Shown here: piece after piece, positions 3,587 through 33,655 of the stretch
Layout: every line of letters begins with the position of its first letter
How positions within the stretch are numbered: the first letter of the stretch is position 1
Assembly (NCBI GenBank): GCA_038203095.1
Contig: JBBREH010000001.1
Location: 431 to 64,430, forward strand
Origin: Candidatus Doudnabacteria bacterium
Lineage (GTDB): Bacteria > Patescibacteriota > Doudnabacteria > UBA920
Length of the DNA: 64,000 nucleotides
Direction: 5' to 3'
Notes under the pieces: model-generated
What the model was told of the DNA's origin: nothing
The model's input: only the letters and a program-made list of their open reading frames with translations
Database searches by the model: none
Program-made: the position numbers and the translations under genes

Positions 3587-3705
3587 ATCTGCGAATGGAA
3601 CGAATCAACGAATAACTGCGAATCTGCGAATCTGCGAATCTGCGAATCTGCGAATTCGTCGATTCGTAGAATATTCGCAGATTCGTCTAATTCGTAAATT
3701 CGATA
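3587..3705. repeat. Tandem 8-mer (CTGCGAAT x5) embedded in a ~120-nt imperfect palindrome
   Basis: Five direct CTGCGAAT copies at 3616..3655. Left arm is rich in CGAAT units and right arm in ATTCG units, centred on GAATTC. Confidence 0.8.
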
Positions 3706-3710
3706 AATTT

Positions 3711-5914: not shown

Positions 5915-6025
5915 TATCCACTAATCACAAATGGAAACAAATACTGCAAATTCAGTGATTTGAACCCCATTTGCTTTATCTGTGATTTGTGAATAATTTG
6001 TGTAATCAGTGATTTGTGGAGAACT
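5915..6025 (+). promoter_or_regulatory. Array of GTGATTTG / CACAAAT repeats between the promoter and groES (candidate operator)
   Basis: aTCACAAATgg at 5919, then cAGTGATTTGa, cTGTGATTTGTGa and aatcAGTGATTTGTGg. No CIRCE consensus is present. Confidence 0.4.
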
Positions 6026-6026
6026 T

Positions 6027-6323
6027 ATGAAAGTCAGACCTTTAGGCGACAGAGTGCTGGTCAAGGAAGTCTCGGGTGAGCAAACCACCAAAAGCGGGAT
6101 AGTCCTGCCGGACACAGCCGAAAAAAAGAAAAGTGGCGTTTATGAAGTAATCGCTATTGGCGACGGTGATGCCGCCAAACAATTTAAAGTTGGCCAGAAA
6201 GTCGTGGCCGGTAAATACAGCGGCGAAGAAGTTGAGATGCCGGAAGACAAAGACATCGAATATAAAATTTTATTCGTCGGCAAGGAAAAGAGTGAAAGTG
6301 ACGTAGTGGCAATAATTGAGTAA
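6027..6323 (+). CDS. groES: Co-chaperonin GroES
   Basis: MKVRPLGDRVLVK...GIVLPD...IAIGDG is the canonical GroES sequence. ATG at 6027. Confidence 0.9.
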   Translation: MKVRPLGDRVLVKEVSGEQTTKSGIVLPDTAEKKKSGVYEVIAIGDGDAAKQFKVGQKVVAGKYSGEEVEMPEDKDIEYKILFVGKEKSESDVVAIIE

Positions 6324-6446
6324 AATTTTCAATTTTTAATTTCTAATTTTCAATGAATTTGAAATTTTGGAATTTATTAATTAAAACATTATAAATTGTT
6401 TAAAAATTGTAAATTGTAAATTAAAAATTAATTCTTTTTGAAATTT

Positions 6447-8099
6447 ATGAGTAAACTTATTAAATATGGCTATGAAGCCAAGCAGGCTATTAAGGCCGGT
6501 GTAGACAAAGCGGCAAATGTAATTAAAGTCACCTTAGGTCCCACAGGTAAAACTGTAATTTTGGGCACAGGTTTTGGCACGCCCACGGTAACTGACGACG
6601 GCGTAACCGTTGCCAAAGACATTGAGCTAGAAGACAAGTTTGAAAATATTGGCGCTTCTTTAATTCAGGAAGTGGCCAACAAGACCAACGAGCAGGCAGG
6701 AGACGGAACTACTACCGCTACAGTACTCGCGCAAAAAATGATAGAAGAAGCTTTTGGCGCTGTGGCGATTAATTCTTCCCGCGCCAACGACATAAAAAAA
6801 GGCATGGACAAAGCCGTGGCTTTTGTGGTGGAAGAGCTGAAAAAAATGAAAAAAGACGTAAAGGGCAAAGAAGGCATTGAGCAGGTTGCCACCATAGCAT
6901 CCCTTGACCCGGAAGTCGGCAAACTTATTGCCGAAGCCATGGAAGAAGTTGGCCATGACGGCGTAATTACCGTGGAAGAAGGCCAAACAATTGGCATTGA
7001 AAAAGAAGTCGTTAAAGGTATGCGCTTTGATAAAGGCTTTGTTAATCCTTACATGGTCACCAACGCCGAACGTATGGAAGCGGTCTGGGACGATGCCTAT
7101 ATTTTAATCACTGACAAAAAAATCGCCAGCGTTCAGGATATTTTGCCGATTTTGGAAAAAGTCGCGCAAAGTGGCAAGAAAGATTTAGTAATTATTGCCG
7201 ACGAGATTGAAGGCGAAGCTTTAGCCACCTTTGTGGTAAATAAACTTCGCGGCACCTTTAATGTGCTTGCGGTTAAGGCTCCGGGTTTTGGTGACCGCAG
7301 AAAAGAAATGCTTCAGGATATTGCAGTTTTAACCGGCGGAACTGTGATTACTGAAGATATGGGTTTGAAATTGGATAAAACTGAAATTAAGGATTTAGGC
7401 AAGGCTAGAAAAGTTATAGCCACCAAAGAGCACACCACAATTGTGGACGGTGCCGGCAATAAAGCAAAGATTGATGCCCGGGTCAGCCAAATTAAAGCTG
7501 AGCACAAAAACTCCACTTCCGATTACGACAAAGATAAATTACAAGAAAGAATGGCTCGTTTGGCCGGCGGGGTGGGTGTTATTAAAGTAGGCGCCTTTAC
7601 CGAAACCGAAATGAAGGCCAAAAAGTTTAAAATTGAGGACGCACTTAATGCCACTCGCGCGGCCGTGGAAGAGGGGATTATTCCGGGCGGTGGCGTTGCT
7701 TTGGCAAAGCTCGCTCCTAAGCTTGACAGCTTTGGCAGTGAGTTAAACGATGGGCAAAGAGCCGGCGTAAAAGTTATTCGCAATTCTTTGGAAGCCCCGC
7801 TTAGGCAGATTGCAATAAACTCCGGTATTGAAGTTACGCCGATTCTGGCAAAAATTCAAAGCTCAACAGATGCCAACTTTGGTTACAATTTTGCCACTAT
7901 GATGGAAACAGACATGCTCAAAGACGGCATTGTTGACCCGGTTAAGGTTACCCGGTTGGCGCTTGAGCATGCTGTGTCTATTGCCTCTACATTAGTAACA
8001 TCTGAAGCTATTGTTGTAGACAAGCCCGAACCCAAAGAATCCGCCCCTTCCGGCGGCGGTATGGGTGGAGGCATGGGCGGTATGGGGGGAATGTACTAG
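6447..8099 (+). CDS. groEL: Chaperonin GroEL
   Basis: Full-length GroEL similarity with C-terminal GGM repeats. ATG at 6447; the track start at 6438 is a TTG. Confidence 0.95.
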   Translation: MSKLIKYGYEAKQAIKAGVDKAANVIKVTLGPTGKTVILGTGFGTPTVTDDGVTVAKDIELEDKFENIGASLIQEVANKTNEQAGDGTTTATVLAQKMIEEAFGAVAINSSRANDIKKGMDKAVAFVVEELKKMKKDVKGKEGIEQVATIASLDPEVGKLIAEAMEEVGHDGVITVEEGQTIGIEKEVVKGMRFDKGFVNPYMVTNAERMEAVWDDAYILITDKKIASVQDILPILEKVAQSGKKDLVIIADEIEGEALATFVVNKLRGTFNVLAVKAPGFGDRRKEMLQDIAVLTGGTVITEDMGLKLDKTEIKDLGKARKVIATKEHTTIVDGAGNKAKIDARVSQIKAEHKNSTSDYDKDKLQERMARLAGGVGVIKVGAFTETEMKAKKFKIEDALNATRAAVEEGIIPGGGVALAKLAPKLDSFGSELNDGQRAGVKVIRNSLEAPLRQIAINSGIEVTPILAKIQSSTDANFGYNFATMMETDMLKDGIVDPVKVTRLALEHAVSIASTLVTSEAIVVDKPEPKESAPSGGGMGGGMGGMGGMY

Positions 8100-22932: not shown

Positions 22933-23891
22933 TGCCAAACAGTGAGAGAATTTTAGTTGGAGGTGGCCCCAGCACATTGTTCGATGTTAGGGTTAAGGGC
23001 CGGGAAACAGAAACTTATCCTCCAGTTTTATTGACACAGGCAGAACAAGATTTTGCCGGGCAACTTTTTTTAGAATTGGAGAGCAAAGTAACTAGTTTTA
23101 GCGATTTTAAAGATTTCCCCAAAATTTTGATTGAGCAATTTCTTAAAGAATATACTGAGAAAGAGGAAGTGATTACAAAAATTTTTTTGCGGGAATTGGG
23201 CCTGATTGATTTTAAGTCGCTACTGTACCCCGGCACCAAGGAGAGTTTGCTTAAGGCCACTGAAATTTATGGCCCAAAATTAAAGAGTGTGCATTTATGG
23301 TCGCAGGGGGATGTAGATGCAACCGGCCATCAGACAAATAAAATTTTTAGAACCGGTTTAGGCGCGATTTTAAAGAGTTCCCGGGCGGCAAGTTTAAAGG
23401 ACAAACTTTTTTGGAATATCCGGACAGATAAATTTGCAAACATAGAAGGCATGCTTGATTCTGTTGCGGAGGGCCAGAAAGAGAAAGTGGTAGTAATTGA
23501 AGACAGTGTTGAGAATATTAAAAAAGTAACCAATATGTTGAAAGATAGGGCAACTGTTTTTCCGATTTGGGCTAATTACAGCCGCCGCGGCGCTAGTTTG
23601 CGAAAGAATAATCTTGAAGAATTTGAGCGACTAAAGAAGGAATATAACGGAATTGATTCTTTGGCGGAAATTTCTAGCAGAGAGAAAGAATTTGGGGAAG
23701 TATTCAAAGATGCCCATTTATTTTTGGATTTTGACGGGGTTTTAGCCAATAATGAAGAGCTTAGGCGGGTTAACGGTGAAGCTTTGCTCAAGGCATTTAT
23801 TATTGGACTTGGGGCGGGTAACCAAGAAAGGCAAAAATTAGTTGAAGAAATTCGGACAAAATTAAACTTGATCTCGCCTGAAAAAAATTAA
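22929..23891 (+). CDS. Hypothetical protein with HAD-like motifs in permuted order
   Basis: Motif-IV-like VVVIEDSVENI precedes motif-I-like FLDFDGVL near the C-terminus. Confidence 0.35.
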   Translation: MMPNSERILVGGGPSTLFDVRVKGRETETYPPVLLTQAEQDFAGQLFLELESKVTSFSDFKDFPKILIEQFLKEYTEKEEVITKIFLRELGLIDFKSLLYPGTKESLLKATEIYGPKLKSVHLWSQGDVDATGHQTNKIFRTGLGAILKSSRAASLKDKLFWNIRTDKFANIEGMLDSVAEGQKEKVVVIEDSVENIKKVTNMLKDRATVFPIWANYSRRGASLRKNNLEEFERLKKEYNGIDSLAEISSREKEFGEVFKDAHLFLDFDGVLANNEELRRVNGEALLKAFIIGLGAGNQERQKLVEEIRTKLNLISPEKN

Positions 23892-23905
23892 TAGTAAATA
23901 AATTT

Positions 23906-24898
23906 ATGGATAGAAATTTAGCTTTGGAATTTGTGCGGGTAACTGAGGCGGCGGCTATTGCAGCTAGTAAGTGGATAGGCAAGGGTGACGGTAAAAAGGC
24001 TGATGGCGCGGCAGTAGATGAAATGCGGTCGCGTTTTAATCAGATAGATTTTAAAGGCGTGGTGGTAATTGGTGAGGGGCAGAAAGACGAGGCGCCGGAA
24101 CTTTACACCGGGGAGAAGGTGGGACTTGGATGGAAAAACTCCAACCACCCCGGCCTTTCAGGCCACCCCTCCTTGAAAAGGAGGGGAGACTCCGTGTTTG
24201 ACCTTGCTGTTGACCCGCTTGAATGTACCGACAGCGTGGCTTATGGGCGTTATAATGCGATTGCGGTTATTGCGGCCGGAGCGCGGGGCTCGCTTTTAAG
24301 TGCGCCCGATACTTATATGGAAAAGTTGGCGGCCGGGCCAAAGGCTGCTAAAGTAATTAAAATGGGTGCGCCGGTTAAGCTAAACATTGAACGTACGGCC
24401 AAGGCTCTTGGTAAAAAAGTTGGGGATGTTACGGTGTGCATAATGGATAGAGAGCGCCATAAAGATTTAATTGGTCAGGTAAGAAAAATAGGCGCCAGAG
24501 TGCGGCTAATTACAGACGGCGACGTAGCGGGCGGGATAGCAACGTGTATGCCAGAATCGGGGATAGACCTGCTTATGGGCATTGGCGCTTCCGCAGAGGC
24601 AGTTTTGGCCGCCACAGCCATTAAAATTCTGGGTGGGCAAATATTCGCTCGCTTTAACCCAATGAAAGAAGCTCATCATCAATTGTTAAAAAAAGCCGGC
24701 CTTAACGACAAAAAAATTTACTCTGTAAACGACCTGGCCAAAGGTCAAACCCTAACCTTTACCGCCACAGGCATTATTGACGGCCCACTGCTTCAAGGGG
24801 TGAGGGTTGAGGGTAGCTACATTATAACCCATTCGATAGTAATCCGCGGTCAGAGCGGAACAATAAGATATATAACAACGCATCATAAGGAGAAATAG
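23906..24898 (+). CDS. glpX: Fructose-1,6-bisphosphatase class II (GlpX)
   Basis: Collinear with GlpX (LALEFVRVTEAAAIAA...GEGQKDEAPELYTGEKVG...DLAVDP). Carries an extra ~17 aa encoded by a palindromic element at 24149..24190. Confidence 0.85.
   Translation: MDRNLALEFVRVTEAAAIAASKWIGKGDGKKADGAAVDEMRSRFNQIDFKGVVVIGEGQKDEAPELYTGEKVGLGWKNSNHPGLSGHPSLKRRGDSVFDLAVDPLECTDSVAYGRYNAIAVIAAGARGSLLSAPDTYMEKLAAGPKAAKVIKMGAPVKLNIERTAKALGKKVGDVTVCIMDRERHKDLIGQVRKIGARVRLITDGDVAGGIATCMPESGIDLLMGIGASAEAVLAATAIKILGGQIFARFNPMKEAHHQLLKKAGLNDKKIYSVNDLAKGQTLTFTATGIIDGPLLQGVRVEGSYIITHSIVIRGQSGTIRYITTHHKEK
24149..24190. repeat. G/C-rich double hairpin inserted in-frame in glpX
   Basis: GGCC-TTTCA-GGCC followed by CCCCTCCTT-GAAA-AGGAGGGG; encodes PGLSGHPSLKRRGD, which is absent from E. 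coli GlpX at that point. Confidence 0.6.
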
Positions 24899-25345
24899 AA
24901 TTTTTAATTTTCAATTTGTAATTTTTAAACAATGTACAAATTTTATAATTATGAAGTATGATTTAGAGGAAAGAACGAGAAAATTTTCAAAAGAATTGAT
25001 TAGGTTTTTGAAAACGATTAAATCAAATTTAATAAACCAATCAATTATTTCTCAATTGGTTAGGTCTGCAACCAGTGTCGGAGCGAATTACTGTGAAGCG
25101 AATGCGGCTAGCTCTAAGAAAGATTTTACGAATAAAATATTTATTTGCAGGAAAGAAATTCAAGAAACAAAATATTGGTTTGAATTATTGGCAGAATCTA
25201 ATCCCGAAAGCAAAGATGAATTAAGAAAATTTTGGAAAGAAGCTCATGAATTGACGTTAATATTTAATAAAATATCAACATCTTTAAGATCAAAATTAGA
25301 AAATTGAAGAATTGTTTATAAATTAAAAATTGAAAATTAAAAATT
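24899..25345. mobile_element. IR-flanked cassette carrying a four-helix-bundle (IVS-type) protein gene, exactly between the glpX stop and the fba start
   Basis: 35-nt AT-rich inverted repeats at 24899..24933 and 25311..25345 (33/35 complementary). Confidence 0.55.
24951..25307 (+). CDS. Four-helix-bundle protein (23S rRNA intervening-sequence protein family)
   Basis: RSATSVGANYCEA...KDF..KI.ICRKEIQETKYWFELL motifs. Confidence 0.65.
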   Translation: MKYDLEERTRKFSKELIRFLKTIKSNLINQSIISQLVRSATSVGANYCEANAASSKKDFTNKIFICRKEIQETKYWFELLAESNPESKDELRKFWKEAHELTLIFNKISTSLRSKLEN

Positions 25346-26389
25346 ATGAATACATCTGAACTCAACAAAACCGCCAAACAAATGGTCGCGCCCGGGAAGG
25401 GGATTTTGGCCGCGGATGAGAGCGAGAAGACTGTGGGAAAAAGATTCGCTTCTATAAATTTAGAAAATAATGAAGCTAACCGCAAGGCTTTCCGGGAAAT
25501 GCTTTTAACGGCTCCCGGTGAAAATCAGTATGTGAGTGGTGTAATTTTACACGACGAGACCATTCGCCAAAGTTTAGATGATGGAAGAAGTTTTGTATCA
25601 ATTTTGCAAAATCAAAACATTTTACCGGGCATAAAAGTGGATTTGGGACTGCAAGAAGTTGGTACTGAAAAGCTTACTAAGGGCCTGGAAGGGTTGGACA
25701 CAAGACTTAAGGAATATACTGCCCTGGGCGCGAAATTTTGCAAATGGAGGGCGGTAATTACCATTGGCCAAGGAACCCCGACTCCTGAAAATATTCGTCA
25801 AAATGTTAAAGATTTAGCCCAATATGCGTTGGTTTGCCAGCAAAATGGACTGGTGCCAATTGTGGAGCCGGAAGTTTTGTTGGATGGTAATCACACCATA
25901 GAACAAAGCGAAGCGGCATTGGAAAAAACCTTAAAAGCACTAGTTGAGGAACTGACAGCCGCGGGCGTAAGTTTTGAGGGCGCGATTTTAAAAAGTAGTA
26001 TGGTGTTGCCGGGTAAAGATTCAGGCTCCAAAGCCACACCCGAGCAGGTTGCCGCAGCAACTATGCGTGTCTTTCAAAAGACTTTGCCGGCCAATTTAGC
26101 CGGAGTGGTGTTTTTGTCCGGCGGACAGGGTGATGTGGAAGCCACAGAAAATCTTAACGCCATAAATCAGCTGGGCTCACAAGCCTGGGCATTAAGTTTT
26201 TCTTACGCCCGGGCGCTTCAGGACGCAGCTACCAAAACTTGGACCGGTAAAAAAGAAAATTTGGCGGCGGCGCAAAAAGTCTTTTTGTTTCGGGTCAAAA
26301 TGAATAGCTTAGCCAGCCAGGGAAAATATTCAGCGTCTATGGAAGAAGTTGGTATGGCGTCTGCCAGCGCTTCAGCAAGTCAGAATTAA
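25346..26389 (+). CDS. fba: Fructose-bisphosphate aldolase, class I
   Basis: GKGILAADES motif and the class I aldolase fold pattern across 347 aa. Confidence 0.9.
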   Translation: MNTSELNKTAKQMVAPGKGILAADESEKTVGKRFASINLENNEANRKAFREMLLTAPGENQYVSGVILHDETIRQSLDDGRSFVSILQNQNILPGIKVDLGLQEVGTEKLTKGLEGLDTRLKEYTALGAKFCKWRAVITIGQGTPTPENIRQNVKDLAQYALVCQQNGLVPIVEPEVLLDGNHTIEQSEAALEKTLKALVEELTAAGVSFEGAILKSSMVLPGKDSGSKATPEQVAAATMRVFQKTLPANLAGVVFLSGGQGDVEATENLNAINQLGSQAWALSFSYARALQDAATKTWTGKKENLAAAQKVFLFRVKMNSLASQGKYSASMEEVGMASASASASQN

Positions 26390-26473
26390 AATAATTGCAG
26401 ATTTGAGATTGCAGATTTTAGAATTACTGCAGTCCGAATCCTAAATCTAAAATCCTAAATCTAAAATTTTATT

Positions 26474-27181
26474 ATGCCCCAAACCAAAAAAGCCAAGTTT
26501 ATACCAATTGTGCATTTAGAAAAAGTCCGCAAAGGCCATGTCAAAGCCGTACCGCAGTGGATGATAAAAAAGATTTCCGCTGAGTTTCTTAAAGGTTTTA
26601 AATTTTTGACCAAGTACAAAAAAGCCGTAAGCATTATGGGTTCGGCCAGAGTGGGTTTAAAAAATGGGGTTTATGATGAGGCAACTAAGCTAACGCATAA
26701 GCTCTCCAAGGCGGGTTTTGCCATAGTTACCGGTGGTGGACCGGGGATTATGGAAGCAGCTAATAAAGGCGCGTTTGAGGCCGGCGGTCAGTCTGTTGGC
26801 ATTAATATTCGCCTGCCTTTTGAACAGCGAACTAACAAATATGTAAAAGAATCGGAAGATTTTTCTTATTTTTTTACACGTAAGGTTATGCTGGAATACG
26901 CCTCTCAAATTTATGTATTTTTTCCCGGGGGTTTTGGTACGCTGGATGAGTTTTTTGAAATGATCACGCTAATCCAAACCGGAAAGGTTCATCCGGTGCC
27001 GGTAATTTTGGTCAATAAAGAATTTTGGTCTCCGCTATTAAAATGGATAGAAACTACAATCTACGAAAAAAATAACGCGATTAATAAAAACGATATGGAC
27101 CTTTACCATTTAGTCGACACAGCAGAAGAGGCGTACGAGGAAATAAAGGTTTTGGCAAAAGAAAAGCATTTGTTTAATTAG
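26474..27181 (+). CDS. LOG-family protein (cytokinin riboside 5'-monophosphate phosphoribohydrolase-like)
   Basis: MGSARVG...[15 protein letters not shown]...PGGFGTLDE motifs. Confidence 0.8.
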
Positions 27182-27191
27182 GGGGAAAGGA

Positions 27192-27649
27192 GACAAGCAA
27201 ACAAGCAAACAAGGAGACAAATAAATAGCTTTAAAGATATATTTGCTTGGCAAAAGGCTCATTTATTAGCCTTGGAAGTTTACAGACTGTCAAAAAAATA
27301 TCCGAAAGACGAGTTATATGGATTGACCAGCCAAACTCGTAGAGCAGTGGTTTCTGTGGCTTCAAATTTGGTTGAAGGTTTTAAGCGAGCAGACAATAAG
27401 GAAGATTCACATTTTTGTAATATAGCTCAGGCTTCTTTAGAGGAAGTTAGATATCAGTTACTTCTGGCGAGAGATCTGGGTTATATTAGTAATCTTGAAT
27501 GTGAAAAGACGGAGCAATTATCCGAAGAAGTTTCTAAGTTGATTTATTTGTGGATGAAAAGTAAGAAATAAGTAAGCAAGGAGACAGGGAGTCAAGCAAT
27601 TAAGGATACAAGCTTAAATGCGGAGCGCTTGTTTGCTTGTTTGCTTGTC
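27192..27649. mobile_element. IR-flanked cassette carrying a second four-helix-bundle protein gene, between the LOG gene and tal
   Basis: Perfect 22-nt inverted repeats GACAAGCAAACAAGCAAACAAG at 27192..27213 and 27628..27649. Confidence 0.6.
27272..27571 (+). CDS. Four-helix-bundle protein (23S rRNA IVS protein family), start uncertain
   Basis: YGLTSQTRRAVVSVASNLVEG motif. The family-typical N-terminus (FAWQKAH) extends in frame upstream to 27182 with no ATG/GTG; only the TTG at 27272 or an ATA is available. Confidence 0.6.
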   Translation: MEVYRLSKKYPKDELYGLTSQTRRAVVSVASNLVEGFKRADNKEDSHFCNIAQASLEEVRYQLLLARDLGYISNLECEKTEQLSEEVSKLIYLWMKSKK

Positions 27650-27668
27650 CCCCTTAACATACTTTCCT

Positions 27669-28505
27669 ATGACAACAAAAATCTTTCTCGACTCAGGCGA
27701 CCCCGTTGAAACCAAACAAGCTTTAAAGTTGCTTGGGTTTTTGGACGGGCAAACTACTAATCCGTCGTTAATTGCTAAAAATCCGGCCACCAGCGGAAAA
27801 AAATTTACTGAAGATGAACTGCTAAAATTTTACCGTGGTATAGTTACAGAAGTCTCGTCGCTCATTCCAAAAGGCAGTGTTTCAATAGAAGTTTATGCGG
27901 ACAAAAATATGTTGGCAAATGAAATGCTGGCGCAGGGTAGGGAGTTTAATACTTGGATTCCGAACGCCCATATTAAATATCCGACTACGACCGAAGGTTT
28001 AAAGGCAGCTGAAATAAGCGTGAAAGAGGGAATGAGGGTAAATATGACGCTAGTTTTTAGTCAGGAGCAGGCTGCTGCAGTTTATGCCGCAACAAAAGGA
28101 GCATTGCGCGGACAAGTTTATTTGTCGCCATTCGTGGGTAGGCTGGATGACCGTGGGGAGAATGGCATGGATTTTGTTTCTAACGTCGTAAAAATGTATG
28201 AACAAGGCGACGGACATGTGGAAATTTTGTCAGCTTCAATTAGGTCAAGCGAACATATGAGAAAGGCGATTGAACAGGGTAGTGATATTATTACGGCACC
28301 GCTAAAAGTTTTAAAAGAGTGGGTAGAGGCGGGATCTTCCTCCTCCCCTCGCCAGGGGAGGATGCCCATAGGACAGGAGAGTTTGCTGCCAATTCTTTAT
28401 CAGGATATCAGCTTAAACAAGCCCTGGCAGGAATATAATTTACAGCATAATTTAACTAATGCCGGTTTGGAAAAATTTACAAGTGACTGGAATTCCTTAT
28501 TATAA
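27669..28505 (+). CDS. tal: Transaldolase (Fsa/TalC-type)
   Basis: IFLDSGDP...TTNPSL motifs. ATG at 27669. C-terminal region carries an extra segment that includes the palindromic element at 28342..28361. Confidence 0.8.
   Translation: MTTKIFLDSGDPVETKQALKLLGFLDGQTTNPSLIAKNPATSGKKFTEDELLKFYRGIVTEVSSLIPKGSVSIEVYADKNMLANEMLAQGREFNTWIPNAHIKYPTTTEGLKAAEISVKEGMRVNMTLVFSQEQAAAVYAATKGALRGQVYLSPFVGRLDDRGENGMDFVSNVVKMYEQGDGHVEILSASIRSSEHMRKAIEQGSDIITAPLKVLKEWVEAGSSSSPRQGRMPIGQESLLPILYQDISLNKPWQEYNLQHNLTNAGLEKFTSDWNSLL
28342..28361. repeat. G/C-rich hairpin inserted in-frame in the transaldolase gene
   Basis: CCTCCCC-TCGCCA-GGGGAGG within a C-terminal extra segment (SSSSPRQGRMPIG). Confidence 0.55.
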
Positions 28506-28513
28506 CATAAAAT

Positions 28514-29248
28514 CCACTTGGAAGAGGGGACACCTCTTCCAAGTGGGACTAATCTATTAATAAAGCTTGAATTTGTTTTTGTTTTTCTATTAGAGGACCG
28601 CTTTCTTCTACAAATTTTTTATAATCGTTAACCGTCTTAAATTTATCCATAATAACTCGCTTATCACAAAGGCCATCGTTTCTTTTTTCAATGTAATCCG
28701 AATAACTACTAAAGGCATATTCATCCGGAGTTTTTACAATCCCGGCCACAGTTGGGTTTTGATGAATATAGGCCGAAAGCCAAGTTAAATAAGATTCATT
28801 TTCTACCGGTATGGCTTTGAATGCTCCTTGAAATAAATGGCCCACATGGTCGTATTTTTTTTGAAAGTAGACTGCGTAGCCGGTGCATAGTTTTTGGATC
28901 AGTTTGCTAATTTTAATTTCGTTGTTTTGTCTTATTAATAAATGAAAATGGTTAGGCATAAGACAATAGCAGATTAAAGAAAATGCATCTGTAGGCAATT
29001 GCTTTCTTTTGTATTTTATATCAAGAGAGCTTGGGCTAACTTCCAATTCATTTTCTGGGAATAAATTTTCTCTTAATCGATGAATAAAAATTCCATAATC
29101 TTGGGGATCAAAAAAAATATCATTTTTACCATTACCTCGATTAAAGACATGATAATAATTTCCCGCAGTAAAAGTTTTGTAATCACGATAACGCATAATC
29201 ATATTATACCATAAAATTAACTTGGAAGAGGGGACACCTCTTCCAGTT
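28514..29248. mobile_element. IS200/IS605-like or RAYT-like unit: Y1 transposase flanked by near-identical palindromic hairpins
   Basis: CCACTTGGAAGAGG-GGACA-CCTCTTCCAAGTGG at 28514..28547 and AACTTGGAAGAGG-GGACA-CCTCTTCCAGTT at 29219..29248; 40 nt from tRNA-Pro. Confidence 0.6.
28549..29202 (-). CDS. HUH-Y1 transposase (IS200-like / REP-associated tyrosine transposase-like)
   Basis: YHVFNRGN..IFFDPQDY; HUH motif in LMPNHFHLLI; downstream Tyr (YIHQNP). Probable start at M68 of the track ORF, because the upstream part overlaps tRNA-Pro. Confidence 0.65.
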   Translation of the reverse strand: MIMRYRDYKTFTAGNYYHVFNRGNGKNDIFFDPQDYGIFIHRLRENLFPENELEVSPSSLDIKYKRKQLPTDAFSLICYCLMPNHFHLLIRQNNEIKISKLIQKLCTGYAVYFQKKYDHVGHLFQGAFKAIPVENESYLTWLSAYIHQNPTVAGIVKTPDEYAFSSYSDYIEKRNDGLCDKRVIMDKFKTVNDYKKFVEESGPLIEKQKQIQALLID

Positions 29249-29288
29249 GTGCAAGTTGGTTGGAAATGGTACACTTTATCAAGTATTT

Positions 29289-29362
29289 CGGGCTGTAGTA
29301 TACCGGTAGTACGTCTGCTTTGGGAGCAGATAGACTGGGTTCGATTCCCAGCAGCCCGACCA
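29289..29362 (+). tRNA. tRNA-Pro (anticodon TGG), CCA encoded
   Basis: Acceptor CGGGCTG/CAGCCCG; anticodon stem TCTGC/GCAGA with loop TTTGGGA; T-arm CTGGG-TTCGATT-CCCAG. Confidence 0.8.
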
Positions 29363-29424
29363 TGAGCCGCTCTCAGTCTAAGGCGAATTCGGGTTGAAAG
29401 CACGACGATTCAACCAAAATCTTT

Positions 29425-30007: not shown

Positions 30008-33000
30008 ATGCAAAATTCTGTCGCAAAGAAAATCTTTGCAGTAGGATCCGCGGTTGCTATGACATTGTCATTGGTAGTCCCGTTTGCGGCTCAAGCCGCG
30101 GCGCACGCTACCGGTACCAATGTCTCCAGCTCTGACGGCACTGTGTGGATGGTTACATCTACCGGTACCCGCCGCGCCTACACTTCCGCCGGCGCCTTCC
30201 TCTCCTATGGATTTAACTCCTGGAGCCAGGTTGTTCCCGCCAGCGCCGAAGATCTAGCCTTACCGGTTGATTCTGCCGGATTCATCCCCCCGCAAGACGG
30301 CACCATCTTTTGCGCCACTGCCACTAAAGGCTCTGACGTCAAAGGTGAATGTGCTTTAATTTCCGGCGGTATGAAGCGCTCATTCACATCAGCCTCGGTC
30401 TTTACCGGCCTTGGTTTTAGCTTCGCCCGCGCCGTAAACGGAGATTCCTCCTTTATGAGCAAAGGCGCCAATGTTGACAACAGCACCATGGCTCATTTGC
30501 CTGGCGTACTTGTTAACAACAACGGCACCGTCCAGTTAGTCGGCTCAAACGGCTTGCTAGGCGTACCGGATTTAGCCACCTTCAATTCCTGGGGCTATTC
30601 CTTTGCCAACGTTGTCCCGGCTAACGCCGCCGACAAAGCCATGACCCAAACCGGCGTTATGGTTGCCCGTTTGGCCGGACAATTGTCCCCAAGCTGGACA
30701 CCAGCCCAACCATGCACCAGCAACTGCACTCCTCCTCCTGCTAACGGTGGTGGTTTGAGTGTTTCTTTGAGCTCTGCTACTCCTGCCGCTTCTAACGTAG
30801 CTGCCGGAGCTGCCTTTATTCCTTTTACTGCCATCAACTTTACCGCAGCCGGCAACCCGGTTGTAGTAACCGGCGTAAAAGTTAAAAGAGGCGGACTTGG
30901 CGCCGACAGCAACCTGAACAATATGTATTTGTTCAACGGTGCTCAAATGTTAGCTCAGTCTTCTTCTGTTCAAAATGGCGTAGTCACTTATTCCAACAGC
31001 GCAGGTTTGTTCACGGTTCCCGCGAACAGCACCTTAACTATTTGGGTTAAGGGTGACTTGTCTTCCGGCACATCCAGCGGTTTAACCTATACATTTAGTG
31101 TTAACGCCGCTTCGGACATTACCTCCAATGCTTCCAGCGTTAGCGGTTCTTTCCCAATTACCGGTAATATGGTTACCAGCGCAACTGTTGTCTCGCCTTC
31201 TTTGGCGAGTTTGACCGTTGCCGGTATTTCCACAGGTGGCACGGTTAACGCCGGCACCAACAGCTTCTTGGCCGCCCAATATTCTTTACAGTCTGCCAAC
31301 AGCTCTGTAAAAGTAAACGGTATTACATTAACTTTTGTCGGCTCCGCGGCGCTTTCCAGCATTGCGAACGTCAAGTTAATGGCCAACGGCACACAGGTCG
31401 GTTCTACTATGACCAGCCTCTCCAGCACAGTTGTATTCTTTGATTTGTCTTCGGCTCCTTTAATGGTGCCAACAGGCAACACTGTCAACTTGCAGGTAAT
31501 TGCCGATATTACCGGTAGCGCCAACAGAACAGGCAACCTGTTCTCCATTCAGCGCAACTATGATATCCAAAGCTATGACACTACCTACAACGTAGGTATT
31601 TTGTCCTCCAGCACTTTCCCTGTAAATGGCACCAGCTTCTCGATTAATGCCGGTACCTTAACGGTTAACCGCGATGTCACCAGCCGCACCACTCAAATTG
31701 CTCCTGGTCAGACAAACCTCACTTTGGCTACATTTTCATTCCAGGCCAACGGTGAAGACGTAAAAATCTTGAACTTGCCGTTTAAAATTGCCGGCAACGG
31801 TTCCGGTAAATTGGATATCAACAATATCAAATTGGTTGATAACGCGGGTTTTGGTCTAGGCACATCTGATACCACCGAAAAGAATGTGGTAGCTACTCCC
31901 TACACCAACAGCTCTGGCGCGGTTAATGCTCCAGGTTTCCAACAGACCTCTAACTTTAATTATGTCATTCCTGCCAATACCACTCGCTTAATTAGCATTG
32001 TGGCCGACATAATTTCTAGCACTACTTCTACAACTGCTACCGCTTCTTTGACCGGTGGTTCTTCCAACGCTCAAGGCGTAGTTTCAGTTGCCAGTATTAC
32101 TACTCCTGCAGTTTCCGGTAACACTTTGACTGTTAGCACTACTTTGCTTACAGCCACTTTGAGTTCCGGTATGGCCAACCCAAGCTTGGTTGTTCCTAAC
32201 TCCCAGTCGACCAAAGTCGGTTCCTTTGCGATAAACGCAGGTGGAGCTGATTCTGTAGATATTACCACTGTGCAGGTTACTACCGGCGCGACTTCTGTTG
32301 CAGCCAACTTTAACCAATTGGCAGTTATGGTAGGTACTACTCAAGTTGGGCAAACTCAAACCACTTTGAGCAACAGCACTGCCTATAGCTTTAGCCCTGC
32401 TACGGCCATTTCTATTCCGGCCGGCGGTAGCGTGACCATAGATGTCTACGCTGGCGTTCAAAGCGGAGCTGAAACTTCGGTGAACCAAAATGTTGTGTCG
32501 TTGACAGGTCTTACTTCTCAACTACACACCAGCGGTTCCACTATTACCTTCCCGGGTCTCGTTACCGGACAGACCGTTAAGGTTACCGGCAACGGCGCTG
32601 TAACCATTACTCAAAGCCCGAACACTCCGGTGTCCAGGCAATTGGCAATGAACCAGGCTGGCCAAATCTTGGGCGTTATCAAGATTGGTGAAACTACAGG
32701 CAACGAAGCTGCCACTTTGACAGATATTACCATCACCGCCACCGGCGTTGCTGGTACTACCCTAAACGGTACTGCGTCAGCCTCTTTGAACTCCTTGCTT
32801 AACTTCACAATCTCCGCTGCCGACAATGCGGGTACAGCTATTGGTTCGCCTGTTACCAGGTCTTCTTGGACTTCAGGCACCGACGGTACCGGCACCGTGG
32901 TTTACACCGTTACCTTCAACAACGTAAGCTTAGCTATCCCGGCGGGACCTGGTAAGTATATGAACTTGACGGTTAAAGCTGACTTAAACAGCTTTACCAA

Positions 33001-33655
33001 CGGCGCGGCTTCCAACTCAATGTGGACTGTCGGTTTGGCCTCGGCTTCTGCCGCGACCATCCGCGGAACCTCTTCCACCGCAACCATTACTCCGACTTTA
33101 ACCGCCAACGCTACTTCTAATACCACAACGGTTCTTAGAACTACTATTGGCGTAGCCTCGGTTGGCTCAATTGCCAGCCCGGTTAGCGTAAGCGTTAGCC
33201 CAACCGGTGTTCCGAGCGCGACGGAAAATATGGCCATCTTTGCGGTTACTGCTTCTAACAGCGGTGACGCAATTGTGCAAAGCATTACTTTGCAACAAGG
33301 TGGTACAGCCCCAACAGGTGTTGCTGTAAACTACACAGTGTTTGACGCCGCTCAAGGCCTCTCCAGCGCTGTGAGTGTAGCTACTGCCATTACTGGTTCT
33401 ACCGCAACTGCGGTTACCCTAAACCTAAACTCCGCTGCCACTGCTGGCGGTGTGACTATTGGCGCAGGTCAAACCAAGTACTTGGTAGTCCAGGCAAACA
33501 CAACCAACTTTAACACCAACAGTGGCAACAGCTCCAAGTCTTACAGCTTGCAAGCTACCACTTGGCGCTTTAGCGACGGTACAACCGGCGTAGGCCCTTC
33601 TAGCGATGCTAGCTCGGTCACCGCAGTTACCACCGGCGCTTCCCGCACATACTAA
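30008..33655 (+). CDS. Very large secreted surface protein (candidate S-layer/adhesin), T/S/A/G/N-rich
   Basis: Signal peptide with AQAAAHA cleavage motif. N-terminal ..F.SWGY modules as in the 14174 protein. About 1000 aa of low-complexity beta-rich repeats. Minus-strand ORFs inside it are composition artefacts. Confidence 0.7.
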   Translation: MQNSVAKKIFAVGSAVAMTLSLVVPFAAQAAAHATGTNVSSSDGTVWMVTSTGTRRAYTSAGAFLSYGFNSWSQVVPASAEDLALPVDSAGFIPPQDGTIFCATATKGSDVKGECALISGGMKRSFTSASVFTGLGFSFARAVNGDSSFMSKGANVDNSTMAHLPGVLVNNNGTVQLVGSNGLLGVPDLATFNSWGYSFANVVPANAADKAMTQTGVMVARLAGQLSPSWTPAQPCTSNCTPPPANGGGLSVSLSSATPAASNVAAGAAFIPFTAINFTAAGNPVVVTGVKVKRGGLGADSNLNNMYLFNGAQMLAQSSSVQNGVVTYSNSAGLFTVPANSTLTIWVKGDLSSGTSSGLTYTFSVNAASDITSNASSVSGSFPITGNMVTSATVVSPSLASLTVAGISTGGTVNAGTNSFLAAQYSLQSANSSVKVNGITLTFVGSAALSSIANVKLMANGTQVGSTMTSLSSTVVFFDLSSAPLMVPTGNTVNLQVIADITGSANRTGNLFSIQRNYDIQSYDTTYNVGILSSSTFPVNGTSFSINAGTLTVNRDVTSRTTQIAPGQTNLTLATFSFQANGEDVKILNLPFKIAGNGSGKLDINNIKLVDNAGFGLGTSDTTEKNVVATPYTNSSGAVNAPGFQQTSNFNYVIPANTTRLISIVADIISSTTSTTATASLTGGSSNAQGVVSVASITTPAVSGNTLTVSTTLLTATLSSGMANPSLVVPNSQSTKVGSFAINAGGADSVDITTVQVTTGATSVAANFNQLAVMVGTTQVGQTQTTLSNSTAYSFSPATAISIPAGGSVTIDVYAGVQSGAETSVNQNVVSLTGLTSQLHTSGSTITFPGLVTGQTVKVTGNGAVTITQSPNTPVSRQLAMNQAGQILGVIKIGETTGNEAATLTDITITATGVAGTTLNGTASASLNSLLNFTISAADNAGTAIGSPVTRSSWTSGTDGTGTVVYTVTFNNVSLAIPAGPGKYMNLTVKADLNSFTNGAASNSMWTVGLASASAATIRGTSSTATITPTLTANATSNTTTVLRTTIGVASVGSIASPVSVSVSPTGVPSATENMAIFAVTASNSGDAIVQSITLQQGGTAPTGVAVNYTVFDAAQGLSSAVSVATAITGSTATAVTLNLNSAATAGGVTIGAGQTKYLVVQANTTNFNTNSGNSSKSYSLQATTWRFSDGTTGVGPSSDASSVTAVTTGASRTY

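Follow-up and report, generated by a model that had tools for sequence, protein, structure and literature searches.

In the 64-kb stretch of Candidatus Doudnabacteria DNA analysed here (64,000 nt, called the window; window coordinates are positions in this stretch on the forward strand), a small gene, hb2, lies in the spacer between a LOG / lysine-decarboxylase-like gene and the transaldolase gene tal, where it is enclosed by the two arms of an inverted repeat. The gene belongs to the four-helix-bundle family PF05635 / TIGR02436. Open reading frames (ORFs) of PF05635 ("S23p") were first found in the 23S rRNA intervening sequences (IVSs) of Leptospira, Coxiella burnetii and Brucella, and RNase III cleavage was shown experimentally for the Leptospira rRNA IVS. 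The element at 27181-27655, called the cassette, and its two host genes have the following parts.

26474-27181, + strand: upstream host gene, LOG / lysine-decarboxylase-like (PF03641, E 3e-34), with the stop codon TAG at 27179-27181
27181-27213, + strand: left arm, consisting of a G5 clamp (27181-27185) and the perfect 22-nt arm (27192-27213)
27189-27220, + strand: tandem array of four octamers, GGAGACAA GCAAACAA GCAAACAA GGAGACAA, read from the sequence; Tandem Repeats Finder (TRF) reported period 8 at 27193-27213
27221-27571, + strand: four-helix-bundle gene hb2, PF05635 / TIGR02436, from ATA (Ile3 of the homologues) to TAA, with no ATG or GTG
27572-27611, + strand: run of five degenerate octamers that follows the stop codon in direct orientation, GTAAGCAA GGAGACAG GGAGTCAA GCAATTAA GGATACAA
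27612-27627, + strand: spacer GCTTAAATGCGGAGCG; its motif AAATGCGGAGCGCTTGT, which continues into the right arm, is common to the related contig L002
27628-27655, + strand: right arm, CTTGTTTG CTTGTTTG CTTGTC and then CCCC-TT, the reverse complement of the left arm
27669-28505, + strand: downstream host gene, transaldolase (tal), assigned by PF00923 (E 1e-44) and synteny

Hairpin anatomy and the enclosed gene

An earlier note on this DNA had described perfect 22-nt inverted repeats around 458 bp between LOG and tal, and this description was confirmed. The 22-mer GACAAGCAAACAAGCAAACAAG was found at 27192-27213 (+) and its exact reverse complement at 27628-27649, giving a span of 458 bp; they were the sole matches in the window, with no third match at up to 3 mismatches and 0 expected from 100 shuffles. 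Pairing between the arms extended beyond the 22-mer to 28 nt at 93% (27186-27213 with 27628-27655), and a G5/C5 clamp adjoining the LOG stop codon (27181-27185 with 27649-27653) was paired in the minimum-free-energy fold. The minimum-free-energy fold of 27170-27670 had a z of -5.25 in comparison with shuffles, and the arm-arm duplex amounted to -46.6 kcal/mol with a stem of about 28-30 bp. The cassette thus has the terminal complementary stem of about 20-30 bp by which IVSs are recognised, 22 bp of it perfect. The stem takes up the whole spacer between LOG and tal, starting at the LOG stop and ending 13 nt ahead of the tal ATG. An independent Logan assembly of the same organism (L001) was identical to the window over 5085/5085 bases, indicating that the window sequence is not a local assembly error. 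The Rfam scan of the window returned two tRNAs only, with no family on the cassette arms and the cassette outside rRNA, and the promoter and terminator scan of 23800-28700 gave counts equal to the shuffled background and no T-tract terminator signature.

The assignment of hb2 was strong at the level of both sequence and predicted structure. The PF05635 match had an E of 3e-35 and 121 bits (cut-off 33.8), and that to TIGR02436 had 112.6 bits (cut-off 24). The AlphaFold2 model, with a predicted local distance difference test (pLDDT) score of 96.4, had helices at residues 8-24, 29-54, 59-85 and 91-115, and the nearest solved structures in Foldseek were Xcc0516 (2GSC, template modelling (TM) score 0.92) and BT_0352 (2RLD, TM 0.84), followed by Avd.

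The earlier note had also stated that the four-helix-bundle ORF runs in frame back to the upstream stop with no ATG or GTG. That observation held and could be refined. The ORF was open in frame from the LOG stop TAG at 27179-27181, and neither ATG nor GTG occurred ahead of TTG 27272, the annotated start. This TTG corresponds to residue 18, and starting there would cost 10 of the 17 helix 1 residues together with the invariant W10 and H14; a functional hb2 from TTG 27272 is therefore unlikely. The 22 aligned homologues start M-[A/P/S]-I-[K/N/Q]-x-FKDIFAWQKAH, and the ATA at 27221 in the window matches their Ile3. The homologues' Met-x codons are absent from the window, which has no canonical start at the family N-terminus; the position of their Met codon is taken by the last repeat unit (AGA, 27215-27217), the octamer array stopping exactly where the ORF homology starts. 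Whereas the junction in L002 reads …GGGGGAACAAAT ATG GCA ATA AAA…, that in the window reads …GGAGACAA ATA AAT…, and the two sequences, when compared, look like a loss of about 8 nt, one unit length, in the window relative to L002. The ORF was otherwise intact over 116 codons, with all family-invariant residues kept.

An AAGGAG lies 4 nt before ATA 27221. Among the window genes (all long ORFs), GGAG or GAGG was present upstream of 2/42, which equals background (5%), and the start contexts were A/T-rich. AAGGAG as a ribosome-binding site for ATA 27221 was consequently rejected, such motifs being at background level in the window, and since the genome does not use Shine-Dalgarno sites, AAGGAG is probably a mere repeat unit. 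Read-through of the LOG TAG into the in-frame hb2 was likewise rejected because the orthologous loci have extra in-frame stops before the gene; these further stops indicate that the shared frame of LOG and hb2 is a coincidence.

The missing start is not confined to the window. Three other family loci (L007, L028 and L063) also had no ATG, GTG or TTG at the family N-terminus, and in two of them an Ile codon (ATT in L007, ATA in L028) stood at the position matching the window's ATA. In a further related contig, L097, an hb2 orthologue at 2048-2392 carries an in-frame TAG in place of a conserved Gln (…EELRY*LLLAKDL…), with no gene called there; this nonsense copy retains its arms (inverted-repeat score 35). 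In the window, hb2 has thus either been silenced very recently or is initiated weakly at ATA 27221. That hb2 is in this genome a pseudogene through loss of its ATG, with only the hairpin still relevant, has in our judgement a little less than an even chance. This explanation draws on the absence of ATG and GTG, the lack of Shine-Dalgarno usage (2/42), the loss of most of helix 1 from a TTG product, the L097 nonsense mutation and the decaying ORF of the Coxiella IVS (PMC4990558). However, the 116 codons are intact with every invariant residue kept, so that the loss, if real, would be very recent, and near-cognate initiation at the ATA could still take place.

Such genes are mis-started or missed by gene callers, as the TTG call in the window and the uncalled L097 copy illustrate. 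Database proteins of 380-890 aa (P0189, P0243, P0233 and others) were found to contain one PF05635 domain; in these, gene calling may have joined a cassette ORF to its in-frame neighbour, as would result here from missing the LOG TAG.

Orthologous cassettes and selection

The gene order glpX-[slot]-fba-LOG-hb2-tal, in which the slot is the glpX-fba spacer, was common to L003, L004, L005, L086, L087, L088, L092, L094, L095 and L097, and the hb2-tal order was kept in L002. The orthologous cassette thus has this LOG-tal location in no fewer than ten related contigs. By the names on the Tal homologues, the clade probably falls among Patescibacteria near Doudnabacteria, with the caution that the taxonomic labels of metagenome-assembled genomes (MAGs) could be wrong. 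Identity to the window was 63-79% for the neighbouring proteins and 57-78% for hb2. The conserved LOG-hb2-tal synteny indicates that the cassette is old and was vertically inherited in a Patescibacteria clade. The proportion of nonsynonymous differences (pN) in hb2 was 0.12-0.19 against 0.71-0.84 for synonymous differences (pS), a range as for LOG, tal and fba. At the codon level, the hb2 protein was thus shown to be maintained by purifying selection that matches in strength the selection on the enzymes encoded next to it.

The arms have been retained together with the gene. Every orthologue had one arm in the gap from the LOG stop to the hb2 start and the other in the gap from the hb2 stop to the tal start, with AAGGATAC, AAGTATAC or AAGTATGT as the 8-nt units; the orthologue units AAG[G/T]ATAC occupy the same place as the window array. 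The weakest bracket was that of L095 (inverted-repeat score 21). Diverged units were found only in the window (AAGCAAAC) and in L095, and in each of them both arms were altered together: the arms of the window scored 46 when paired with each other and at most 26 with the arm of any orthologue, and L095 behaved likewise. The idea that the arms turn over rapidly, with compensatory changes, in all orthologues was toned down, as most of them share AAG[G/T]ATAC and pair across loci about as well as within loci. The last 3' octamer of the window keeps the orthologues' unit, an ancestral relic GGATACAAG at 27604-27612 in direct orientation after the stop, and direct octamers after the stop were also present in L088, L092 and L097. 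Because the cassette is old and its arms co-changed, the perfect repeat reflects continuing homogenisation or selection and not youth. Perfect flanking repeats should therefore not be taken as a sign of recent insertion. Neither the 22-mer nor its 16-nt core had another copy in the 64-kb window or in 95 compared loci.

Design across the PF05635 family

To place the cassette within its family, which comprises about 35,000 clusters at 50% identity, 80 PF05635 loci were picked by hb2 similarity, one genome per species, from Acidobacteriota, Planctomycetota, Bacteroidota, Bacillota, Cyanobacteria, Patescibacteria and other phyla. The 555 controls had the geometry of the tested flanks but were shifted to other positions in these loci, mostly in coding sequence. 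The inverted repeat of the flanks exceeded the control 95th percentile in 59/77 testable loci (77%), with a median score of 35 compared with 17. TRF arrays were detected in 60/70 upstream and 56/70 downstream flanks, and the period of the upstream arrays was 7 or 14 in 49/60 and 8 or 16 in six. The arrays held a median of 4.2 units (interquartile range (IQR) 3.8-4.75), hence arms of about 28 nt. When rotated to a common register, the units gave the consensus A-G-[T/G]-[A/G]-[G/A]-T-[C/T] (summarised as AGNNNNY), the "AG" core being present in 37/43 upstream units and, after reverse complementing, in 32/35 downstream units. Array density within 200 nt of the PF05635 genes was 19 times that in the rest of the same loci, where solo arrays with the same unit were also present.

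These elements have a compact and oriented layout. The median span was 468 bp, the arms began a median of 6.5 nt past the upstream stop and finished 11 nt before the next start, and both neighbours were co-directional in 39/50 loci. The left arm was purine-rich (G>C in 43/58 loci), an asymmetry that suggests a strand-specific role, exerted by RNA or by a single strand. Of the 20 loci whose repeats were strongest, none lay in an rRNA gene, and no Rfam family covered their arms. A direct-repeat array after the stop was rejected as a general trait, since the right arm usually starts 9 nt (median) past the stop. This family-level architecture is a more interesting result than the window cassette itself.

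The same data bear on the simplest alternative, namely that the inverted repeat has nothing to do with the gene and either arose by chance or is an ordinary terminator. Other ORF-free tandem-unit hairpins do exist in this genome (3616-3709, 6322-6438 and 26394-26467) and lend it some colour. However, no matches were expected by chance, the arms bracket the ORF instead of trailing it, the bracket was present in every orthologue and in 77% of the distant family members, and a T-tract was missing. Shuffles, family controls and orthologues all disagree with this alternative, which is already contradicted and which we regard as wrong in all probability.

The explanation that we favour, and hold to be probable though by some distance not assured, is that 27181-27655 is an ancient, promoterless, operon-embedded cassette of IVS type that is folded out of the transcript and is a probable RNase III substrate. 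Read-through transcription of the glpX-fba-LOG-tal block would carry the cassette, given that no promoter of its own was found in the scan and that the neighbours are co-directional. The RNA stem would loop out the insert of about 415 nt and draw the LOG stop and the tal start near each other. As a double-stranded structure, it may be cut by RNase III, by analogy with the rRNA IVSs and with the hmw hairpin of Haemophilus. Slippage within the repeat array would make the junction between arm and ORF unstable, and the start codon could have been lost in this way.

Several points weigh against this explanation. The right arm can pair locally with the 3' direct octamers (-34.0 kcal/mol), and thus the long-range stem is not the sole possible fold. 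Among the mismatches in 58 stems, 59 were of the G-U type and 82 of the A-C type on the sense strand (p = 0.06); with no wobble excess, the complementarity has no RNA-specific signature and could be maintained by a DNA-level process. In Coxiella, the IVS RNA is labile once excised and probably yields no protein (PMC4990558), which agrees poorly with the purifying selection on hb2. Finally, the model assigns no role to the conserved protein and leaves the tandem 7-8-nt unit build of the arms unexplained.

In another explanation, the tandem units are putative binding sites of the encoded homopentamer, a homologue of the nucleic-acid-binding Avd; by binding its own array of about four units, the homopentamer would auto-regulate its gene or shield the stem from RNase III. 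Binding could be to single strands, by analogy with TRAP on triplet repeats, or to double strands. The tight unit count of about four, the recurrent "AG" core and the seemingly cargo-specific unit type are in line with this idea. The nearest solved structures are pentamers and Avd is part of a ribonucleoprotein with the RNA of a diversity-generating retroelement (DGR) (2GSC, 4DWL, 8UB7), and at Xcc0516 the array extends over the start codon of the gene itself (supplement of PMC4692102). Nevertheless, four units do not match five subunits, the derived unit of the window has no obvious matching protein change, and a cargo of unrelated fold, GxxExxY, uses the same design. We consider array binding unlikely on balance; it is compatible with the RNA-stem explanation, as is a DNA-level mechanism.

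Slot contents, known systems and neighbouring features

The window holds a second cassette of this kind, and GxxExxY genes recur in a similar setting, with the following features.

24899-25345, + strand: sister cassette in the glpX-fba spacer, with a PF05635 gene at 24951-25307 (ATG) within a 56-nt, 84% complementary inverted repeat
TACGAATA: repeat unit of the GxxExxY type

The arms of the sister cassette consist of about 4 AATTTTT heptamers each, and its GC content was 28% compared with about 45% in the flanks. Its protein had no phmmer match to hb2 and belongs to a different PF05635 subfamily. The contents of the glpX-fba slot varied among the relatives: another four-helix-bundle subfamily was found in L003 and L092 and unrelated small ORFs in L094 and L095, while the slot was empty in L086, with a spacer of only about 12 nt. 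When filled and empty slots were compared, no clear target-site duplication emerged; AATT may be duplicated, but these letters belong to the palindrome. The LOG-tal slot, in relatives collected by Tal, contained the nonsense hb2 (L097), an unrelated minus-strand ORF (L096) or a GxxExxY gene (L098), and in L099 a RAYT-like transposase with repetitive extragenic palindromic (REP) palindromes stood upstream of tal instead.

The GxxExxY gene of L098 (1943-2503; TIGR04256, PD-(D/E)XK nuclease fold) was enclosed in an inverted repeat scoring 51-60 with TACGGAxx units. Three further GxxExxY genes, at L100 2001-2399 and at L103 2001-2396 and 3302-3745, were located in operon spacers with tandem TACGAAxx arms (scores 40-45, controls 12-24); their hosts are a Bacteroidota MAG and a Doudnabacteria type-IV-secretion-like operon. 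The inverted tandem-unit bracket was therefore present in 4/4 GxxExxY genes examined. The occurrence of these genes in like hairpins indicates that the hairpin design is independent of the cargo, and the repeat unit seems to go with the cargo. GxxExxY (TIGR04256 / PF13366) thus shares the bracket type and the LOG-tal slot with hb2 but differs in its unrelated fold and TACGAAxx unit.

These observations bear on a further alternative, in which the repeats are the DNA-level ends of a mobile cassette that inserts, excises or exchanges cargo in operon spacers, with the RNA stem as a by-product. The logic would be that of integron attC sites or of the hairpin ends of IS200/IS605, and such a process could coexist with an RNA stem. 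The polymorphic glpX-fba slot is consistent with it, as are the GxxExxY gene in the LOG-tal slot of L098 within the same kind of hairpin and the TACGAAxx or TACGGAxx arms of all four GxxExxY genes, whose unit appears to travel with the cargo. Unit similarity also tracked protein similarity (Spearman -0.12, permutation p 0.01), closer proteins having more similar units, a correlation confounded by host relatedness. The solo arrays with the same unit and the lack of a G-U wobble excess point in the same direction. On the other hand, no recombinase or transposase was found in or adjoining the cassettes, a clear target-site duplication was missing, the LOG-tal cassette is fixed in place across a deep clade, and the 22-mer had no other copy in 64 kb; the co-orientation with the host genes and the purine-rich left arm are moreover unexpected for a symmetric DNA site alone. 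This alternative is possible, and we rate it well below the RNA-stem explanation. The earlier note had taken two cassettes within 3 kb as an argument for mobility. For the LOG-tal cassette this does not stand, given its presence in the same spacer in at least ten contigs. The varying slot contents do support mobility of the class as a whole on an evolutionary time scale.

The description of the element as an IVS-type cassette, also made in the earlier note, was borne out in family, size and terminal stem, in which it resembles the Coxiella IVS, and failed with regard to rRNA location. The Coxiella 23S IVS has 428-444 nt and a stem of 28 bp, with GACAGAT x3 preceding the start, and it shows variable repeat number, a decaying ORF and an RNase III cut mid-stem (PMC4990558). 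The window cassette has the same PF05635 family in its loop, a terminal stem of about 28 bp, a size of 458-474 nt against 428-444 nt in Coxiella, tandem short repeats between stem base and start codon, an unstable junction and a decay-prone ORF. In contrast to the IVS, it lies in the mRNA spacer of a sugar-metabolism operon and not in 23S helix 9, 25 or 45, and because it is outside rRNA the host RNA is functional without excision. It differs also in that hb2 is under long-term purifying selection and in that the units are octamers where those of Coxiella are heptamers.

The closest structural relatives, Xcc0516 (2GSC) and BT_0352 (2RLD), are pentamers of the "S23 ribosomal protein family" with 33% and 24% identity to hb2. 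The Xcc0516 gene and bccP are 6 nt apart, and the start codon of Xcc0516 is overlapped by a GGGAATC-type array of 4 units and 28 nt, for which the published table gives no inverted partner (supplement of PMC4692102). Neither the Xcc0516 nor the BT_0352 paper ties repeats to the gene family. Among the intergenic heptamer repeats on record are GGGAATC in Xanthomonas, GGGGA[C/T]T in Nostoc, the short tandemly repeated repetitive (STRR) sequences of Calothrix and TAACTGA in Beggiatoaceae (PMC4692102, PMC4679880). In X. campestris, 70 convergent hairpin-capable pairs were reported, including inverted four-unit GGGAATC arrays in the groES-groEL spacer (supplement of PMC4692102). These repeats share with the cassettes the tandem run of about four units, the convergent arrangement and the close fit to gene starts and stops, and the window hairpin at 6322-6438 likewise occupies a groES-groEL spacer. 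They were catalogued as G-quadruplex-forming or regulatory without an associated gene, whereas here the arrays bracket a small gene. The hb2 cassette has four units per arm, but of 8 nt; the sister cassette and 49/60 of the family flanks use 7 or 14.

Other known systems were compared as well. Avd has a homologous four-helix-bundle fold (4DWL, 8UB7, TM about 0.8), and the identification of hb2 as the DGR accessory protein Avd was rejected, as NF033474 scored 32.4 bits (cut-off 80) and the identity was 12%. No reverse transcriptase, template or variable repeat was found among the neighbours (glpX, fba, LOG, tal and the Y1 transposase), the wider window not having been scanned for reverse transcriptases. 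In the 5' untranslated region of Haemophilus influenzae hmw, tandem heptamers form one arm of an RNA hairpin that is cleaved by RNase III and affects the change in repeat number (PMC12721329); unlike the cassette arms, that hairpin is the regulator of a large adhesin gene and not a bracket around a small cassette gene. An origin as a miniature inverted-repeat transposable element (MITE), an insertion sequence (IS)-type transposon or a REPIN was rejected, the 22-mer being restricted to this element in 64 kb and 95 loci and the cassette containing no transposase.

Full-text literature searches, which covered few subscription-journal papers, found no link of PF05635 or GxxExxY genes to tandem-repeat stems outside rRNA. 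ORF-bearing rRNA IVSs and gene-free heptamer repeats were known already, and the architecture outside rRNA appears to be new. It connects two puzzles that have stood apart for about 30 years, the ORFs of rRNA IVSs and the over-represented intergenic heptamer repeats. Small-gene hairpin cassettes might even constitute a widespread, unrecognised class of elements, with promoterless PF05635 or GxxExxY cargo, about four 7-8-nt units per arm, operon spacers as sites and a cargo-specific unit, a generalisation that we offer tentatively and regard as doubtful at present. If it is true, this class may include the 23S rRNA IVSs as a special case (no rRNA locus was among the sample), the encoded protein would act on its own arrays to maintain, process or move the cassette, and the intergenic heptamer repeats (STRR, GGGAATC, TAACTGA) would be solo relics or landing sites. 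Testable ideas opened by this view are RNase III processing at the stems, binding of pentamers to the arrays and exchange of cargo at fixed slots.

Downstream of tal, an IS200/Y1-type (RAYT-like) transposase gene on the minus strand lies within 28519-29245 and is flanked by 26-nt palindromes at 28519-28544 and 29220-29245 (TGGAAGAGGGGACACCTCTTCCA); the mechanical ORF 28549-29403 is too long and takes in tRNA-Pro 29289-29362. A Y1 transposase is also present 3' of tal in L003. A link of the cassette to this Y1/RAYT-like transposase (REP / RAYT) was rejected, the TGGAAGAGGGGACACCTCTTCCA palindromes being unrelated to the cassette arms.

The three ORF-free hairpins of the window differ in their units. 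The hairpin at 6322-6438 has AATTTTC-type heptamers, the unit type of the sister cassette, and exactly fills the spacer from groES (6009-6323) to groEL (6438-8099). That at 3616-3709 pairs CTGCGAAT x5 with ATTCGxAx x4 (-58.7 kcal/mol) and ends 1 nt short of the ATG with which an unannotated 114-aa ORF starts, and that at 26394-26467 pairs ATTGCAGATTTGAG x2 with AATCCTAAATCTAA x2 and fills the fba-LOG spacer. The …CGAAT unit of ORF-free intergenic hairpins resembles the TACGAAT arms of the GxxExxY cassettes. Elsewhere in the window, an ORF of 1215 aa at 30008-33655 is rich in Ala, Ser, Thr and Gly, begins with an N-terminal hydrophobic (signal-like) stretch and has a GC content of 0.50-0.57 compared with about 0.37-0.41 around it.

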